From a virus: 64,000 bases of DNA. The position numbers and the translations under genes are program-made. The notes beneath the pieces were generated by a model. That model was not told the DNA's origin. It saw only the letters and a list, made by a program, of their open reading frames with translations, and did not search any database. This document shows positions 35,800 to 42,235 of the stretch, one piece after another. The first letter of the stretch is position 1, and each line of letters opens with the position of its first letter. Location of the stretch: positions 1 to 64,000 of IMG/VR virus record IMGVR_UViG_3300044630_003053; one strand, 5' to 3'.

Positions 35800-36486
35800 A
35801 TGAAAATTCTAATAATTGCAAAGGGGAGATGTGGTTCACATTCATTAATAGATTGGTTAGGTGAGGAATTTAACTTAAAAACCATTTACGAAAATGAAAA
35901 TAAGGACACTTCGGTGGTCGATGACTATATTATTAAAAGACACCCATCATCTATTAAAGGAGATTTATCATCAGATTTTATCACCGATGGATACGATTAC
36001 GTAATAAGGTTAATTAGGGAAAATACAATACTAACCGCTGAGAGTAATGTGTGGGCAGAAGAAAAACAAAAATATCACCCGAAGGGTAAGGAAAAATATA
36101 TTATAGATGAAGCCTTTTTGAGAAAACACCATAGAGAAATTTGGAGTAAAAAAATAGGTTATGATGAATCCAACGACGTAATAAGGAATATAGGTGTTGG
36201 TATATTAGTTACATATGAAGAATTATTTTTATATGGGACAGGTCAGGAAAAGATAGAGAAGTATATGGGTTTTAAATCTACTTCAAAATTAAATACTGAC
36301 CTCAAGAAAAGTAGATTTCACATAATGGATAAAACAGTATATACCACATATGATTTAGCATATAATAAAACCACTATCTTAGAAGAAATTATTAAACAAA
36401 AAGATTTAGTTATCGATAATTTAAACGAAAAGATTAAAAATTTAAACGAAACAATTGTAGATTTGGTATCATCAAAAAATAGATAA
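35800..36486 (+). CDS. sulfotransferase-like protein
   Basis: N-terminal IIAKGRCGSHSL resembles a PAPS-binding P-loop. Confidence 0.35.
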   Translation: MKILIIAKGRCGSHSLIDWLGEEFNLKTIYENENKDTSVVDDYIIKRHPSSIKGDLSSDFITDGYDYVIRLIRENTILTAESNVWAEEKQKYHPKGKEKYIIDEAFLRKHHREIWSKKIGYDESNDVIRNIGVGILVTYEELFLYGTGQEKIEKYMGFKSTSKLNTDLKKSRFHIMDKTVYTTYDLAYNKTTILEEIIKQKDLVIDNLNEKIKNLNETIVDLVSSKNR

Positions 36487-36809
36487 TGATTAAAAGAAAG
36501 AAACCCTTTGCAAAGATTGTAAAGGAATGGAATGAGGCATCCACCATGGAAGTATGGGAAGGAGTAAGGGATAACTTTATATTTGGATTCCTTGGTGCAA
36601 CCATTGTGGTATTCATCGCAACTAGAGCCGACCTCATGGTATTATTTGGATATCTGATATACTATTTCTTCATGGGGAGGATTGTCAATAGACCAAAATA
36701 CGTCACGGACTTAGGTAAACTCATAGTGTTCCCCATCCCATCAGCACTTGGTGCATTCGCAGGATATAAGTTCTCGTACATTCTACAAGAGTTAACCCAA
36801 CGTATATGA
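36486..36809 (+). CDS. membrane protein
   Basis: 3 TM helices. Confidence 0.4.
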   Translation: MIKRKKPFAKIVKEWNEASTMEVWEGVRDNFIFGFLGATIVVFIATRADLMVLFGYLIYYFFMGRIVNRPKYVTDLGKLIVFPIPSALGAFAGYKFSYILQELTQRI

Positions 36810-37387
36810 AGATATGTATAATATCATCCATAGGTAGATCTGGAACAACCTCACTATTTGATATGATGAGTTTATGTCTACCAAGATACTACACATGTTT
36901 AAATGAACCATTCGGTCGATTTCAAAGAGGGCATGAGATGAATCTTATTGAAAACGCCCCCAATGTTCTTGTAAAGGAGTTATTAAATAATACGGTTAAC
37001 CATAAGGTTTTCCCATATGATTGGGTGTATCAGACCTTTGATAAGGTTATTGTGATGGATAGAAGAAATAAGTGGGAACAGGCGGAGAGTCACGCAGCAC
37101 ATTCATATAAAGGGGATAACTTTAAAAGTTGGCACAATAGAAGGGAATACGACTTAACAAACATACCCACGGAGTATATTAAGGCATTAGCAGACCAATC
37201 GGAGGATTTAATGCAATATCATAGGGGTAAGATTTACTATTACGAGGATGTGTTTATGGAACATAACTTGGATTTGTTAATGGAGATTATGAATTCTGTG
37301 GGGATAACAGAAATACCCAATCAAATACTAAAGGATTATTTCTATAGTCCCAAGAAGAAGGTAAGAATAGTAAAGACCCTAATTTAA
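36806..37387 (+). CDS. sulfotransferase-family protein
   Basis: IISSIGRSGTTSL (5'-PSB motif-like). Confidence 0.45.
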   Translation: MKICIISSIGRSGTTSLFDMMSLCLPRYYTCLNEPFGRFQRGHEMNLIENAPNVLVKELLNNTVNHKVFPYDWVYQTFDKVIVMDRRNKWEQAESHAAHSYKGDNFKSWHNRREYDLTNIPTEYIKALADQSEDLMQYHRGKIYYYEDVFMEHNLDLLMEIMNSVGITEIPNQILKDYFYSPKKKVRIVKTLI

Positions 37388-37483
37388 GAGTGTCCAATTT
37401 AAAATATAACTGCGAACGGGGATTCCGGAGGTCTAATTTAAAATATATTTGGAATATACTAGAATATAACATATATTTGTGGT

Positions 37484-37744
37484 ATGAGAAGAAAGAAACC
37501 ATTCATGGATGATATCCATAAGACCACACCTGTAACCATCACCTATAAGTTCTATAATGACACGGTGATTATGAAGAGAGACGTATATGATTTAACAATT
37601 AGGGACCTAATGGAGTTAAATCGGTCCATGGTGGTGAATGTCTTTGATGAACAACTCTATCAGGAGTATATTATTCAATTAGCAGGGGAGTTAACAAAGA
37701 AAAAGAATCCAATTAAGAACTTTATTGAAAGAATATTAAGATAA
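37484..37744 (+). CDS. hypothetical protein
   Basis: ORF preceded by promoter at 37445-37480. Confidence 0.4.
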   Translation: MRRKKPFMDDIHKTTPVTITYKFYNDTVIMKRDVYDLTIRDLMELNRSMVVNVFDEQLYQEYIIQLAGELTKKKNPIKNFIERILR

Positions 37745-37985
37745 GTTTGGAATTGTAATAAAGATATCTTATCTTTGTAAAAGAAATTAGTTCATTGACA
37801 TTATTGGAAATATTATTTCATCTTCTTAATAGAAGATGGTGCCAGTTGTTTGGCACATAGTGAATTCTGAATAAACAGAATGTGGATTTATCCGTGGAGA
37901 TTAATTTCTCACTCACTCAATACCTTTTATTTTTTAAAAATATTGTTCACAACTCATTGTAACATAGAAGGTTGTATATGGATAG

Positions 37986-38270
37986 GTTGTGAATACCATT
38001 ACTTTGAAAGGTTTATACAACAGAGTGACTGTCTAAATGACTACGACCCGGTTGTGAATACCCCTACTTTAAAAGGTATATACAACCGGTATAGCTCTCA
38101 TGTCATTAATGATTTGGTTGTGAATACCATTACTTTGAAAGGTTTATACAACAAACGATTGAAAGGTATATACAACCACCACATAAATGAAGATATATAC
38201 AACATCCCATTCCATACTTTACATATTAAGGTATAAACAACGAATTGGTTATTAAAAGGTAATATACAAC
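37986..38270 (+). CRISPR. mini CRISPR-like array: 3 full 36-nt repeats (37986-38021, 38051-38086, 38117-38152), spacers of 29 and 30 nt, then 4 degenerate repeat 3'-fragments
   Basis: GTTGTGAATACCATTACTTTGAAAGGTTTATACAAC (x2) and GTTGTGAATACCCCTACTTTAAAAGGTATATACAAC; repeat termini GTTGT/ACAAC are inverted; decaying copies all end in TATACAAC/TAAACAAC. Confidence 0.7.
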
Positions 38271-38324
38271 ACGAAGTCTCACGACTTAAAGATTATTATT
38301 TCCAATAATATAAACAAAATAACC

Positions 38325-39692
38325 ATGTCCATTAAAACAAGGAAGATTAAATTGATTGCGGTTGGTGAAACTGCAAAGGATAGAACAAAGGTCTACAACT
38401 ACATTAAGAAGGTTGCAGATGATTTGACCCAAGTGGGAAATGAGGTTATAAGACTTCATGTGTGCAATCAATATGAAATTGACAGGTTAAAGGGTACAAA
38501 TAATATTTCCAAGGGTGATGCAATTAAGATACTACAAGATTCACTTGGTACATCCATAAGGAATTCGGGGTATCAACTACTAACAAAATTCCCATATATA
38601 TCTTCTCAAGTAAGGACATGTTTCAATTCTGTTATATATAAGACCATAAGTGATAACTTCTATGATATCCTTAAAGGGAAAGTATCCATTCCATCATTTA
38701 GAAAATCTAATCTATCCATTCCATTTTCAGCCAATAATGATAAAGAAACTGGTATAACGAACGCAATATACGCCGAGGGAGATAGATACTACATACAATT
38801 CCCATTATCGGGGGAAGAAAGAAAGATACATAAAAAAGTTGAATTATCCTTATTCTTCGGAAAAGATAGAAGTAATAATAGAATTATTGTAGATAGAATA
38901 CTCAATAGTGAATATAAACTATGTGATAGTAACTTCAAAATAGAAGATAATGATTTATATCTATTGATTACCTATAAACAACCAGATAGTATTAAACCCG
39001 AAATGGATGTTAATAAGGTAATGGGTATAGACTTAGGTATTAATAGACCCGTATCCATTTATATTTCCAATGAAAAACATCAACCACGACAGATTAATAT
39101 AGGATTAAAGATACAACATGAAAGGATGAAATTCTATAAACATAGAAAATCCCTACAGGAATCTTTAAAGTATTCTAAAGGTGGTCACGGTAGAAATAGA
39201 AAGTTGAAGTCTTTGGAAGATTTAAGAGATAAGGAAAAGAATTGGAGTCAATTAATAAATCATACTATCTCTCGAGAAGTTATCAGGATTGCTAACGAGT
39301 ATAATGTTGGTGTTATCCATATGGAAGATTTAACAGGAATAACAACTAACTCTAAGGATTACTTCATGAAGAGTTGGGCATACTACCAACTACAAACTTA
39401 TATAGTATATAAAGCAAAAGAACTTGGGATAACCATATTATGGGTAGACCCTAAGAATACTTCTAATACCTGTCCCACTTGTAAGGTTTCTGAACCATTG
39501 AATAGAAACGATAAAGATAAAACAAAATTCAGATGTATTAATTTGAATTGTAAGGACTTTGATATGGATAGAGATGCTGATATTGTAGGAGCATTTAATA
39601 TAACACATACCTTAGGATTAGATGTAAAGTCTAATAGTAAAGAAGGTAGAATGAAAAAAGGTAAGGAGAAAAAATTTATGGAACAAGTATAA
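38325..39692 (+). CDS. TnpB/Cas12f-like RNA-guided nuclease candidate (compact RuvC nuclease, 455 aa)
   Basis: RuvC-I MGIDLGINRPV, RuvC-II VIHMEDL, zinc finger CPTC...FRC..C, RuvC-III DMDRDADIVGAFNI; all catalytic acidic residues present. Confidence 0.8.
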   Translation: MSIKTRKIKLIAVGETAKDRTKVYNYIKKVADDLTQVGNEVIRLHVCNQYEIDRLKGTNNISKGDAIKILQDSLGTSIRNSGYQLLTKFPYISSQVRTCFNSVIYKTISDNFYDILKGKVSIPSFRKSNLSIPFSANNDKETGITNAIYAEGDRYYIQFPLSGEERKIHKKVELSLFFGKDRSNNRIIVDRILNSEYKLCDSNFKIEDNDLYLLITYKQPDSIKPEMDVNKVMGIDLGINRPVSIYISNEKHQPRQINIGLKIQHERMKFYKHRKSLQESLKYSKGGHGRNRKLKSLEDLRDKEKNWSQLINHTISREVIRIANEYNVGVIHMEDLTGITTNSKDYFMKSWAYYQLQTYIVYKAKELGITILWVDPKNTSNTCPTCKVSEPLNRNDKDKTKFRCINLNCKDFDMDRDADIVGAFNITHTLGLDVKSNSKEGRMKKGKEKKFMEQV

Positions 39693-39850
39693 TATGTTCA
39701 CTAATCTCTACCGTTCACGGAACGTGAACATAGGTATTTTGTGAACACTTTTACCCTGAAGGGAGGAGACGAGAGTCTCCGACCGTACAATTACCCCCTA
39801 TAAAATTACCCCTCAGAACCCCTCCATAGGGGTTTTATTTTACCCCGAAT
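39693..39850 (+). ncRNA. candidate structured 3' RNA (omegaRNA/tracrRNA-like scaffold)
   Basis: consecutive hairpins GTTCACGgaaCGTGAAC, GGAGACgagaGTCTCC, CCCCTccatAGGGG plus T-run directly after the nuclease stop; no coding capacity. Confidence 0.35.
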
Positions 39851-40560
39851 TTTTTCCTGTTTATACCACTAAAAACCCCACTTTTTCCTGTCTGTTTTAT
39901 CGTGATCAATTAATATATCTAAAACTATCTTTTTCTATCCCATATTTGGGTTCTAGTATAATTTATCCACAATTCCCCACTTTCTCCCACTTACTAGGAA
40001 TATACCCTGGGATTGACCCGTGAGCGAATCACAGACCATTTTATTTTTTCTACCAGAATATACCCCTAATATCATTATATTATTACGGTCGGACTCTTCG
40101 AGTCCTCCCTTCAGGATGTCATACAAGTGTCTTAGTATAACCCTTTATATATTATATTAATCTGTCATACATTAGGTTCCACGTGGAACCCTGAAGGGGG
40201 ACCGAAGGTCCCCCGTATAATGAAACATTCGTAATACGGGATGAAGGGGACCGAAGGTCCCCGAGTATACTTATAATACTTTTATACGGTCCTGATGTGA
40301 TACGTCTATAATCCCTGAACCGTAATACAAACATTACTGGGGTGAAGTAGAAAATGGTTTGCCAAACAACATTAACATTACTGGGGAGACCAATATTGTT
40401 TGGCAGATTATACGGGGACCTTCGGTCCCCTTCAGGAGAATCTTAGAATAATCCTATGGAAATTAAAAAAACCCTTAGGGATTTTCCGAAGGGTTCTTAG
40501 TATAGTACAATATATGTCTTACAAGGAAAGGATGAAGGGGGACCGAAGGTCCCCCGTAAG
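39744..40560. repeat. family of six CTGAAGGG-[GC-rich hairpin]-GTA elements, incl. four GGGGACCGAAGGTCCCC hairpins, two inverted
   Basis: copies at 39744, 40085 (inv), 40187, 40237, 40406 (inv), 40529. Confidence 0.75.
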
Positions 40561-40567
40561 TAATACT

Positions 40568-41452
40568 CTATGTCCATTTAAAAATAAAGTTGAACTTATC
40601 TAAGTTACTTGAAAAACGAACAGGAACTAAATCATTTGATTTAAGTATGTATTTTATTCTTTCTGTTAATAGTGTTTCTAATAGTTCTTTTTTAGGTACT
40701 GCATAATCTTCAGAAAGTTTTGGGTACTCTATATAGATTGGCATAAAATCGAAGTCTACTTCCCCAGTAATCTTGTTGTGGCTTCTTGCATCACATTTGA
40801 AATTAAGTTTAACATTTTTGGGGAATTTATAATATACCTTGATTTGTTTTAATTCACCATCATCTCCCATACTCGTATTGATTTCATCTGGTATTGTAAA
40901 GGTTCCCTCCTCGACGAAGTCAAGATGAACCTGAAGGTTATGTGGAGTATTCTTTTGGGATTGGAGTTGTCTCAGACCTCTATTAATTCTTTCCAAGGTG
41001 GTGTCGTCGAGTTCCATTACAGATCTAAATCCCACGGGGTCCTTAAGAAACGTCATCAGAGTCTTTACTTTACGAACTTCTTTTGTCCATTGAAGTATCT
41101 CCACGGGTAATACAGTGTCCATTGCACTGTTTAAGTTAAATCCAATGAATTCATTCATTCCCCCAGTAAATAATAGGTCACTGATCCTCACCGTGGTTTC
41201 ACCCATCTCATTACTATTCCCATCCATGTACTCGTCATACATGGGCTTGAACTTCTCCGCGATTTCGGTCATCAACTTGAATATTATATCTGGTTGGACC
41301 TGAGTCTCACGTATTACGATGTTCAAGTAAGCACCAAATGTACTGAAAGTTTCAGGTAATGTATAATAAATCTCACCGTTTATTGTGTTCAACGGACCCC
41401 TCAGAGACTTTACGAATCTCTCGAAATCTGATTTGTCTAATATTTTTCCCAT
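40568..41452 (-). CDS. hypothetical protein (294 aa)
   Basis: ORF. Confidence 0.5.
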   Translation of the reverse strand: MGKILDKSDFERFVKSLRGPLNTINGEIYYTLPETFSTFGAYLNIVIRETQVQPDIIFKLMTEIAEKFKPMYDEYMDGNSNEMGETTVRISDLLFTGGMNEFIGFNLNSAMDTVLPVEILQWTKEVRKVKTLMTFLKDPVGFRSVMELDDTTLERINRGLRQLQSQKNTPHNLQVHLDFVEEGTFTIPDEINTSMGDDGELKQIKVYYKFPKNVKLNFKCDARSHNKITGEVDFDFMPIYIEYPKLSEDYAVPKKELLETLLTERIKYILKSNDLVPVRFSSNLDKFNFIFKWT

Positions 41453-41518
41453 AGATATAAATATAAAAAAAAAGGTTCCATGGTGGTGGAACCTCTTAGT
41501 AATACATGTGTAATAAGA

Positions 41519-41698
41519 CTATCGTCCCATTAACTCGTTACGGAACTGTACGGCCTTTCTCTTACTAGAGAAATTCTTAGAGTACTTAGTACCATTAACA
41601 CTTACACGTACACGGTAAGATGAACCATCATGATAGATGTTGTCGGCGACAGGAACATACGTAGTTACTGTGGTGCGACGGGATGTTGTTTTTTTCAT
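41519..41698 (-). CDS. small AP2-like DNA-binding domain protein (59 aa)
   Basis: hand-translated: ...GSSYRVRVSVNGTKYSKNFSSKRKAVQFRNE fits the AP2/integrase-type pattern; terminator at 41470-41500. Confidence 0.35.
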   Translation of the reverse strand: MKKTTSRRTTVTTYVPVADNIYHDGSSYRVRVSVNGTKYSKNFSSKRKAVQFRNELMGR

Positions 41699-41968
41699 TT
41701 GTGACTATTTTAAGTTTATATATAAAATATAACAAATAATATCCAAATAAAAAAATCCTGTCAAAAAAATATTTTATCCCAGTAATGTTCCGAGTCCCTG
41801 ATCAGGTCCCACTGTTGAGATATCTATCTCCCCACTTCTTGGTCATATAGGCATCATACCTATGTACCTTGTTCGGGTTGAACAGGAATATCACGAAGTA
41901 GTAATCCCACTTCCACTCTAAATCTTTTAAAAACTTCTTCATATGATGTTGTTTATTCCCCAGTAATG

Positions 41969-42235
41969 TTATCCCATCTTCTCCTTCCTGAGGATGTCGG
42001 TCAGAAGATTTTTGTGATTTTGGAGGATTACACCGTGCTGTTTCTTAAGAGCTTCGTCCAAAGACATTCTTTTGTGTGTAATCCTCCAATTGATTCTGTC
42101 GGTCGACTCCCATCGTTCCCAATGTTTACCACTAGGTGATAATTGAATTCTACTGTGAATCTTTTTCATTTGCTTTTTATTTGATAATTCCGCAAAGGTA
42201 CGGTGTTTAAGGGTTAATAACAAACCCTTAAACAA
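41969..42235 (-). CDS. hypothetical protein
   Basis: ORF; start may be internal. Confidence 0.35.
   Translation of the reverse strand: MFKGLLLTLKHRTFAELSNKKQMKKIHSRIQLSPSGKHWERWESTDRINWRITHKRMSLDEALKKQHGVILQNHKNLLTDILRKEKMG

Follow-up and report, generated by a model that had tools for sequence, protein, structure and literature searches.

What is a compact RuvC nuclease doing next to a miniature CRISPR array in a viral genome? An initial annotation of this DNA raised the possibility of a TnpB caught in transition to a CRISPR effector; alternatively the nuclease is an established Cas12 enzyme, in which case one would like to know what it is aimed at. The locus lies within a stretch of 64,000 nucleotides (nt), positions 1 to 64,000 of IMG/VR record IMGVR_UViG_3300044630_003053, which we refer to as the window. 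Comparison of its sequence with relatives makes it very likely that it is a complete type V-F1 (formerly V-U3) system without adaptation genes, carried by a large, virulent-looking phage (at least 166 kb) of a Bacteroidota host and with guides directed against an island of the host. The system would comprise, on one strand and in this order, a trans-activating CRISPR RNA (tracrRNA) of about 120 nt, a leader, three repeats and the two spacers between them, a decayed stretch that closes with a terminal guide, and cas12f:

37815-37940, + strand: predicted tracrRNA, about 120 nt, covariance-model match
37819-37838, + strand: stem 1 hairpin of the tracrRNA
37839-37856, + strand: second tracrRNA hairpin, GUGCCA-GUUGU-UGGCAC, its loop GUUGU (37845-37849) being the complement of ACAAC at the repeat 3' end
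37859-37917, + strand: multi-stem body of the tracrRNA
starting at 37910, + strand: tracrRNA motif CACUCA; the segment CACUCACUCAA precedes the anti-repeat
37919-37930, + strand: tracrRNA anti-repeat AAUACCUUUUAU, then a U-tract that runs to about 37935
37941-37985, + strand: linker that joins tracrRNA to array and serves as leader; sister strain L080 has the identical stretch
37986-38021, + strand: CRISPR repeat 1, 36 nt
38022-38050, + strand: spacer 1, 29 nt, leader-proximal
38051-38086, + strand: CRISPR repeat 2, 36 nt
38087-38116, + strand: spacer 2, 30 nt
38117-38152, + strand: CRISPR repeat 3, 36 nt
38153-38270, + strand: four truncated units holding the 3' half of the repeat only (..AAGGTATATACAAC)
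38271-38287, + strand: terminal guide ACGAAGTCTCACGACTT, 17 nt, without downstream repeat, 100% conserved in L080-L083
38325-39692, + strand: cas12f, 455 amino acids (aa), V-F1/V-U3-type

The window protein is a Cas12f1 and not a transitional TnpB. This assignment follows from its match to V-U3 and V-F profiles together with the renaming of V-U3 as V-F1/Cas12f1, a group that includes AsCas12f1 and SpCas12f1 in the classifications of Karvelis 2020 and Makarova 2020. When the protein was searched by profile and by structure, as the initial annotation had suggested, Cas12f came out best and above TnpB. Residues 3-429 aligned to positions 2-388 of the 398 positions of the PADLOC Cas12u3 profile with an expectation value (E) of 1.1e-82, and the Cas12f V-F profile matched end to end (E 9e-81). 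In Pfam, Cas12f1-like_TNB was recovered with E 2e-14 and OrfB_IS605 weakly, below threshold. The NCBIfam model guided_TnpB scored 146.3 bits over residues 110-428 only (cut-off 100), a match that carries no TnpB assignment because it is expected for any Cas12f. CRISPR_Cas12f2 (Cas14b-type), likewise from NCBIfam, stayed below its cut-off of 450 with 111.7 bits, and the C-terminal half alone aligned. Among solved structures phmmer ranked Al3Cas12f (9NZO, 9NZR; E 1e-44) before AsCas12f (E 1e-37), followed by SpCas12f1 and CnCas12f1. The predicted AlphaFold model (predicted local distance difference test score 84) retrieved exclusively Cas12f at Foldseek ranks 1-22, with ISFba1 TnpB at rank 23, Cas12p at 26 (E 1e-11), ISDra2 TnpB at 27 and LaTranC at 40. 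Hence Cas12p ('Cas12 hacker'), TranC, Cas12j/Cas-lambda and TnpB, which were considered as a nearer family, all lie well below Cas12f in sequence and in fold. The RuvC residues D236, E334 and D419 and the zinc-ribbon (TNB) cysteines C383, C386, C404 and C409 do not vary across 30 homologs that are 47-96% identical, which agrees with the complete catalytic triad and zinc finger described initially.

The tracrRNA is predicted from a covariance model (R1) that was built from nine copies. Its match in the window is unique and, with 123.8 bits, scores as high as that of any family member. The region folds with z = -4.47. Homologs adjoin cas12f in every relative fetched; R1 finds one or two copies each in L001-L005, L080, L089, L102, L104, L106 and L108, always on the strand of the gene. 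In an alignment of 15 sequences, 98.3% of the cells in the proposed structure pair, and compensatory changes affect 13 of the 20 pairs. None of 500 shuffled controls reached the observed score, and partners slid out of register were paired in 30-48% of cells. The tracrRNA segment AUACCUUUUA is the perfect complement of UAAAAGGUAU in repeat 2, and the predicted dual-guide pairing joins the repeat 3' half AAAGGUAU with the anti-repeat AUACCUUU. The calculated duplex energy of cognate anti-repeat and repeat is -10.7 kcal/mol in the window and -12.9 kcal/mol in L003, as compared with -3.6 to -6.2 kcal/mol for non-cognate combinations; judged from these sequences, the anti-repeat co-varies with the repeat. 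The parts for a joined guide would be tracrRNA(37839-37930)-GAAA-AAAGGUAUAUACAAC-guide. Rfam and tRNA scans returned nothing meaningful for the region, and no Rfam family exists for this tracrRNA. An AT-rich conserved motif (..TTGACATTATTGGAAATATTATTTCA..) precedes it at 37787-37818 and at equivalent positions in L001, L002, L003 and L005. A similar motif in inverted orientation, 'TATTTCCAATAATATAA', precedes cas12f (38300-38320) and forms with the former the inverted-repeat pair I1. Both are candidate promoters; a consensus scan detected no sigma-70-type site at 37787-37818 or 38300-38320.

Three 36-nt repeats with spacers of 29 and 30 nt and palindromic termini (GTTGT...ACAAC) had been described initially, and coordinates and sequence proved correct. 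The repeat reads GTTGTGAATACC[A/C][T/C]TACTTT[G/A]AAAGGT[T/A]TATACAAC and ends in the window with ...TTTGAAAGGTATATACAAC. Tandem Repeats Finder reports a period of 66, 2.6 copies and a score of 192 for the array, and neither spacer has a second occurrence in the window at up to 3 mismatches. The part of the repeat that appears to be functionally conserved is its 3' half, the side predicted to pair with the tracrRNA. At up to 2 mismatches this half occurs in six copies in the window, all of them within 38007-38241, where 0.45 would be expected. The array had been placed 173 nt upstream of a 455-aa open reading frame (ORF) on the same strand. The ORF and the strand stand, while 172 nt separate the cas12f ATG from the end of repeat 3, and this interval is not empty: it is filled by the four truncated units, which end at 38176, 38203, 38241 and 38270 with spacer remnants of 6, 13, 24 and 14 nt, and by the terminal guide. 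Truncated repeats and terminal guide were missing from the initial annotation, as were the tracrRNA, which lies outside the interval it covered, and the protospacers.

The truncated units are probably scars of deletions that arose by recombination between repeat 3' halves. We read them in this way because the terminal repeat is still full length in the sister strain represented by L080-L083, unlike the half present in the window. Decayed units resembling those of the window also occur in L001 and L102. At about 37967-37982 the leader holds a degenerate first half-repeat, GAAGGTTGTATATGG, in the place of which L001 and L102 possess an intact half-repeat ending in ACAAC. The sequence GGTTGTATAT (37970-37979) within this region was first taken for the anti-repeat of the tracrRNA; this was rejected in favour of 37919-37930, and GGTTGTATAT is regarded as a degenerate first repeat unit because of the intact half-repeat in L001 and L102. 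Gene callers report a 118-aa ORF spanning the tracrRNA 3' end and the array (37880-38236, + strand), and the public contigs L084-L087 list it as a gene too; in all likelihood it merely reflects translated repeats and is spurious.

The sister strain shares 96% of the protein and 94% of the gene nucleotides with the window. Between the two, the leader is identical, the tracrRNA near-identical and the trailer common, and they also share the unit GAATTGGTTATTAA with its half-repeat as well as the terminal repeat half with its guide; their leader-proximal spacers, however, differ. As far as the two sequences tell, this is the polarised pattern of an array that gains spacers at its leader end.

More than 500 metagenomic homologs of about 440-490 aa form a family in which the protein is well conserved. 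The family members examined all come from contigs of 29-340 kb that are viral or phage-like. One close match turned up in 185,579 species genomes, located on a 248-kb contig of a Flavobacteriaceae metagenome-assembled genome (MAG). All nine distinct relatives inspected (9/9) possess the same tracrRNA and repeat family on the strand of the gene, unrelated spacers, and arrays upstream and/or downstream of the gene. The same repeat family adjoins the gene in L001-L005, L080, L089, L102, L106 and L108, with up to 12 units (11 full-length), and the relatives together hold more than 60 spacers. Outside tracrRNA and array, the flanks differ among relatives. Thus, end-to-end matches to Cas12f profiles, Cas12f folds at the top of the predicted structure ranking, a separate covarying tracrRNA and arrays with variable spacers in all relatives lead us to abandon the proposal of a TnpB in transition: the locus is no intermediate but a V-F1 system of the ordinary, fully split kind.

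The locus was recovered in identical form from at least five assemblies; over 13.4 kb one of them, a 166-kb contig, agrees with the window at 99.985% identity. The phage is represented by contig Ga0453922_0000009. Together with window genes for thymidylate synthase, a tail-collar protein, GP88 and DNA methylases, this accords with the phage-like genome assumed initially; most window ORFs have no family. Cas1, Cas2 and Cas4 were not found among the Pfam families listed for the 97 window ORFs (25 of 30), nor in the neighbourhoods of the relatives examined. The description of a minimal type V locus, with nuclease and array on one strand and cas1, cas2 and cas4 absent, is therefore retained. Adaptation genes are typically missing from V-U3 loci in the classifications of Shmakov 2017 and Makarova 2020. 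A search of 36000-42000 against 50,697 phage records gave no nucleotide match, and the proteins of this region match only distant 'transposases' in known phages, at no more than 35% identity. Searching IMG/VR with the single Cas12f protein returned none; relatives were found with an alignment as query.

Where do the guides point? A spacer search had been suggested initially, and it succeeded for spacer 1 and failed for spacer 2. Scanning Joint Genome Institute metagenomes with exact 20-mers of spacer 1 led to two non-array contigs, and its protospacer lies in a gene for a 301-aa AAA-like ATPase of an island. Spacer 1 agrees with this site at 27/29 positions in L109 and L113 and at 26/29 in L110, positions 1-22 or 1-25 being perfect, and the 5' flank is ATTG. 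Three further matches on this element came from comparing every spacer of the family with all fetched loci. The first spacer of L080 matches the same island at 27/29 positions, about 430 bp from the site of the window spacer and on the opposite strand, with the flank TTCG. The terminal guide matches at 17/17 positions from position 1 (flank CTTG in L110), and L080 spacer 6 at 14/14 from position 1 (flank CTTG). All four guides thus match one island (L109-L113), with BLAST E-values of 9e-10, 9e-10, 5e-5 and 3e-3 in a 57-kb database. All protospacers are in the core module of the island, none in its restriction-modification (R-M) cargo. The four flanks (TTG, TCG, TTG, TTG) give a T-[T/C]-G consensus on the side of the protospacer adjacent motif (PAM), and these are the only protospacers available; Cas12f1 enzymes use T-rich 5' PAMs (PMC8548392; PMC13186708). 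Exact 20-mers of spacer 1 had no match in IMG/VR, where the first spacers of L002, L108 and L003 found their own arrays only. Spacer 2 produced a chance-level match alone in INPHARED (E 0.2). Self-targeting by the decayed units was considered and discarded: their 6-14-nt spacer remnants have no match of 13 nt or more in the island, the window or the other sequences compared. Homologs of the targeted ATPase in jumbo phages are distant (at most 27% identity) and uninformative.

The island extends over the following coordinates:

1-14687 of L111 (contig Ga0453084_0001202): island
1120-7846 of L113: island

It encodes a tyrosine integrase, an excisionase-like HTH_17 protein, a CI-like repressor, a replication initiator (DUF6291; phrog_2880), a ParB-N6 methylase, the targeted AAA ATPase and a DUF5131 protein that matches the defence-candidate models PDC-M41B and PDC-M30B; no virion genes were seen in its gene content. 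The core (DUF6291 initiator, ParB-methylase, AAA ATPase, DUF5131, integrase) is conserved and the cargo varies. L111 and L112 carry a complete type I R-M system (hsdR, hsdS and hsdM with PADLOC E-values of 1e-123, 3.5e-62 and 6e-160) and a 1309-aa DUF4011/AAA_11/AAA_12 helicase, unlike the part of L113 that is seen, which has no R-M genes or DUF4011 helicase. In L113 the element abuts accA, dapA, mutS and ubiA, and the accA and dapA products correspond to NCBI proteins of a Chitinophagia MAG. From this gene content and these flanks we conclude that, on the sequence evidence, the target is an integrative island that carries defence cargo and resides in a Bacteroidota chromosome. The host of the phage is probably a member of the Bacteroidota, class Chitinophagia; the Bacteroidetes-type host named initially is in line with these flanking genes and with the relative in the Flavobacteriaceae MAG.

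On this basis we propose the following mode of action. The array transcript would pair via its repeat 3' halves with the anti-repeat of the tracrRNA, and ACAAC would additionally pair with the invariant GUUGU loop. By homology to AsCas12f, SpCas12f and Al3Cas12f, Cas12f is expected to bind this dual RNA, probably as a homodimer, and to cut double-stranded DNA matching the first ~20 nt of a spacer next to a 5' TTG or TCG PAM. By their sequence matches, the guides of the lineage are aimed at one host-chromosomal mobile island equipped with type I R-M and candidate defence genes. By analogy with phage ICP1 and the island PLE, the purpose would most likely be to destroy or disable the island during infection, as a counter-defence or anti-satellite measure. 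Spacer turnover at the leader end could draw on host Cas1-Cas2 acting in trans or on recombination between phage arrays.

Several points weigh against a working system of this kind. With only three intact repeats left and half of the array decayed, the locus may be eroding. Neither adaptation machinery nor an array of the host built on this repeat came to light. Spacer 1 and the sampled islands differ at 2-3 bases, all at the PAM-distal positions 23-29, and spacer 2 has no target in the window, in IMG/VR (exact 20-mers) or in the fetched loci. The PAM is derived from four protospacers only, and the terminal guide is flanked by ATAG in the island variants L111 and L113. The role of the island, be it defence, satellite or chromosomal handle, is read from gene content alone, and the host assignment from MAG labels. 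Taken to its extreme, the decay would suggest a relic, a once-active V-F1 system that is losing its array and no longer functions. Such a relic would account for the scarcity of full repeats, the four half-repeat units with remnants of 6-24 nt, the degenerate first cis half-repeat, the targetless spacer 2 and the absent adaptation genes. It is at odds with invariant catalytic and zinc residues, a protein conserved over more than 500 homologs and an intact tracrRNA scoring as high as any in the family; moreover, leader-proximal spacers that vary between strains match the sampled island at 27/29 positions with a consistent PAM-side flank, and the identical locus came from at least five independent metagenome assemblies. 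We therefore regard a relic as improbable. Another idea is that the protein acts as an RNA-guided DNA-binding regulator which represses without cutting, by means of short or partial guides. Several guides do match the target over the first 14-17 nt only, short guides have been reported to switch TnpB between editing and regulation (PMC13507860), and nuclease-dead Cas12f relatives in Bacteroidota serve as transcription factors (PMC12259090), with 9n9c among our structure matches. The RuvC triad of the window protein, however, is intact and invariant, the short matches sit in the oldest, decayed part of the array, and the newest spacers match 22-25 contiguous nt, which by analogy should suffice for Cas12f cleavage. 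We thus give a regulatory role very little credence.

Hardly credible is an IS200/IS605-type TnpB with an omega RNA, the repeats being transposon-end debris. What could be cited for it is the guided_TnpB score (146 versus 100 bits), the weak OrfB_IS605 match, the annotation of homologs as 'IS605 OrfB transposase' and the fact that some relatives have scaffold and guide fused directly 3' of the gene, as in an omega RNA. Yet Cas12f profiles and structures are ahead by tens of orders of magnitude, no TnpA (Y1 transposase) family is among the listed Pfam matches of the 97 ORFs, and the gene is single-copy in the window. In addition, the tracrRNA is separate, upstream and not overlapping the gene 3' end, with no model match downstream in the window, and arrays in relatives reach up to 12 units with unique spacers of about 29 nt, the guides matching a foreign island and not flanking DNA. 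A different question is whether the functional system is a weapon between mobile elements, directed at a satellite or temperate competitor of the phage, with the defence cargo being incidental. The lysogeny and replication module without structural genes resembles phage satellites, all protospacers are in the core module, the part of L113 seen is devoid of R-M, and according to a review the targets of viral arrays are for the most part related viruses or mobile elements (PMC11656645). On the other hand, nothing shows that the phage induces or packages the island, and L111 and L112 do carry defence cargo. We consider this a possible, if rather unlikely, account; it is compatible with counter-defence, PLE being both a satellite and a defence. 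A complete V-F1 system aimed at a host island remains our preferred interpretation.

Some relatives, unlike the window, contain a cis-joined scaffold directly 3' of the cas12f stop, in which the anti-repeat is followed by a 3-17-nt loop and by a half-repeat with guide:

L002, 5346-5501: cis-fused scaffold with guide
L005, 5343-5497: cis-fused scaffold with guide
L004, 5349-5523: cis-fused scaffold with guide
L106, 5366-5530 and 5859-6024: cis-fused scaffolds with guide

In L002 such a single unit downstream of the gene is combined with a 12-unit array upstream. The predicted folds of the cis-fused units contain the expected hairpin of anti-repeat and repeat. Judged by sequence, each would amount to a natural single-guide RNA (sgRNA) with omega-RNA topology, similar to the engineered sgRNA design. 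It is tempting to speculate, though we put the chances at less than even, that the clade is a phage-specialised Cas12f1 branch that (a) serves as a single-protein anti-island weapon, a type V counterpart of ICP1 versus PLE without adaptation genes, and (b) has kept both RNA configurations, namely the cis-fused, omega-RNA-like scaffold of L002, L004, L005 and L106 and the split tracrRNA with multi-spacer array of the window. If true, the presence of both configurations in one family would provide a living snapshot of the 'RNA splitting' in the transition from TnpB to Cas12.

Downstream of cas12f there is one further element whose membership in the locus is uncertain:

39695-39750, + strand: weakly repeat-/tracr-like stretch, 56 nt, with a GTTCAC-GGAAC-GTGAAC hairpin followed by ATAGGTATTTTGTGAACAC

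It resembles the 'hairpin + AUAG' of the tracrRNA and the 5' half of the repeat (64% similarity to the repeat), gives no match to the covariance model and is absent from L080. Possibly it is what remains of a tracrRNA/array downstream of the gene, as present in L002, L003 and L005. A second tracrRNA/array at 39730-39774 (64% repeat-like) was dismissed: the covariance model finds no match there and the segment is missing in L080. Between 39757 and 40558 the module 'TGAAGGG - GC-rich hairpin - CCGTA' occurs in five copies in both orientations (0.07 expected), and they fill the 875 nt that separate cas12f from the convergent gene at 40568-41452 (- strand). The modules recur in L080, where their stems have changed in a compensatory manner (GGGGGACC/GGTCCCCC to GGGGACAC/GTGTCCCC), and in L102 one module directly follows cas12f. 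Rfam matches none of them; terminators, REP-like elements and small RNAs are all conceivable. The CRISPR locus is the exact meeting point of two convergent transcription blocks, and the GC skew flips at about 39.7 kb. Among the further window products are three DNA methyltransferases (two C5, one N6/N4), NifU and Fe-S assembly proteins, a dTDP-sugar epimerase, a DnaA-C-like helix-turn-helix protein and a pyrimidine-dimer glycosylase.

The family has implications beyond this locus. More than 500 uncharacterised, small (about 450 aa) Cas12f1 orthologs with a short scaffold of ~110-125 nt, for which tracrRNA and crRNA handle are predicted and a candidate PAM is at hand, represent compact material for genome editing that can be tested. 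The guides of the phage outline a triangle of phage, host and island in uncultured freshwater-type Bacteroidota and tie the phage to a Chitinophagia host. They suggest that phages use single-effector type V systems, and not just the type I-F system of ICP1, against host defence islands or satellites. Relatives with cis-fused scaffolds are natural material for studying how an omega RNA is split into tracrRNA and CRISPR RNA (crRNA).

The most instructive comparison at the level of biology is that with vibriophage ICP1, which Seed et al. 2013 are said to have found using a type I-F CRISPR against the host island PLE. Common to both are a phage-borne effector and array and strain-variable spacers matching a host integrative island with anti-phage genes, the likeness resting here on sequence. 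Unlike ICP1, whose system is multi-subunit with demonstrated acquisition, the window has a single 455-aa type V effector and no Cas1 or Cas2-3, and the bacteria concerned belong to another phylum. A general statement on phage-encoded CRISPR systems directed against mobile elements is given in PMC11656645. Huge-phage Cas12j/CasPhi, Cas-lambda, Cas12p and Cas14U.5-like Cas12f resemble the window system in being virus-borne, with compact arrays, no co-occurring cas genes and a presumed use against competitors. They differ in size, as Cas12j and Cas-lambda have 700-800 aa and no tracrRNA, Cas12p 500-700 aa and soil-phage Cas12f-like proteins about 700 aa. Huge phages are already documented as carriers of compact type V systems, Cas12f-like ones among them (PMC11748809; PMC11656645), and Cas12p is another phage-borne miniature Cas12 (bioRxiv 2025.01.20.633832). 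With IS200/IS605 TnpB and TranC the window protein shares the RuvC/TNB core, and their omega-RNA topology recurs in relatives but not in the window; unlike them, the locus has no transposase or transposon ends, a split tracrRNA and crRNA, several spacers, and guides against foreign DNA.

Closest are the V-F1 systems AsCas12f1, SpCas12f1, CnCas12f1 and especially Al3Cas12f/MG119 of Alistipes, with 422-506 aa as compared with 455 aa here. In the experimentally validated sgRNA of Al3Cas12f, a 5' hairpin is followed by another with the loop GUUGGA, the complement of UCCAAC at the repeat end; then come a multi-stem body, ACACUCAA and the anti-repeat (PMC13186708). The same guide layout is found in the window, with stem 1, a hairpin with a loop complementary to the repeat end, a multi-stem body, 'CACUCAA' and the anti-repeat. 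Further common traits are the split RuvC with zinc-ribbon TNB, the full-length profile match, the absence of adaptation genes, the predicted use of the last 15-20 nt of the repeat and a nearest relative from Bacteroidota; a T-rich 5' PAM side may be added, judging by the four protospacers. By contrast, the window protein is about 25-35% identical to the solved Cas12f orthologs over the matched stretch. It belongs to its own clade of more than 500 metagenomic proteins, found on viral or phage-like contigs where examined and in 1 of 185,579 species genomes. Its tracrRNA stands upstream of the array and distal to the gene, not between the two; T-Y-G is the apparent PAM, and in relatives tracrRNA and first half-repeat are often linked in cis. 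Already known are the V-F1 subtype as such, its dependence on a tracrRNA, the missing adaptation genes and the occurrence in large phages, so that the locus represents a sizeable and apparently undescribed phage clade within a known subtype and not a new type of system. Less ordinary are the concentration of the guides of two strains on a defence-bearing island, the short gene-distal tracrRNA and the cis-joined tracrRNA of the relatives.

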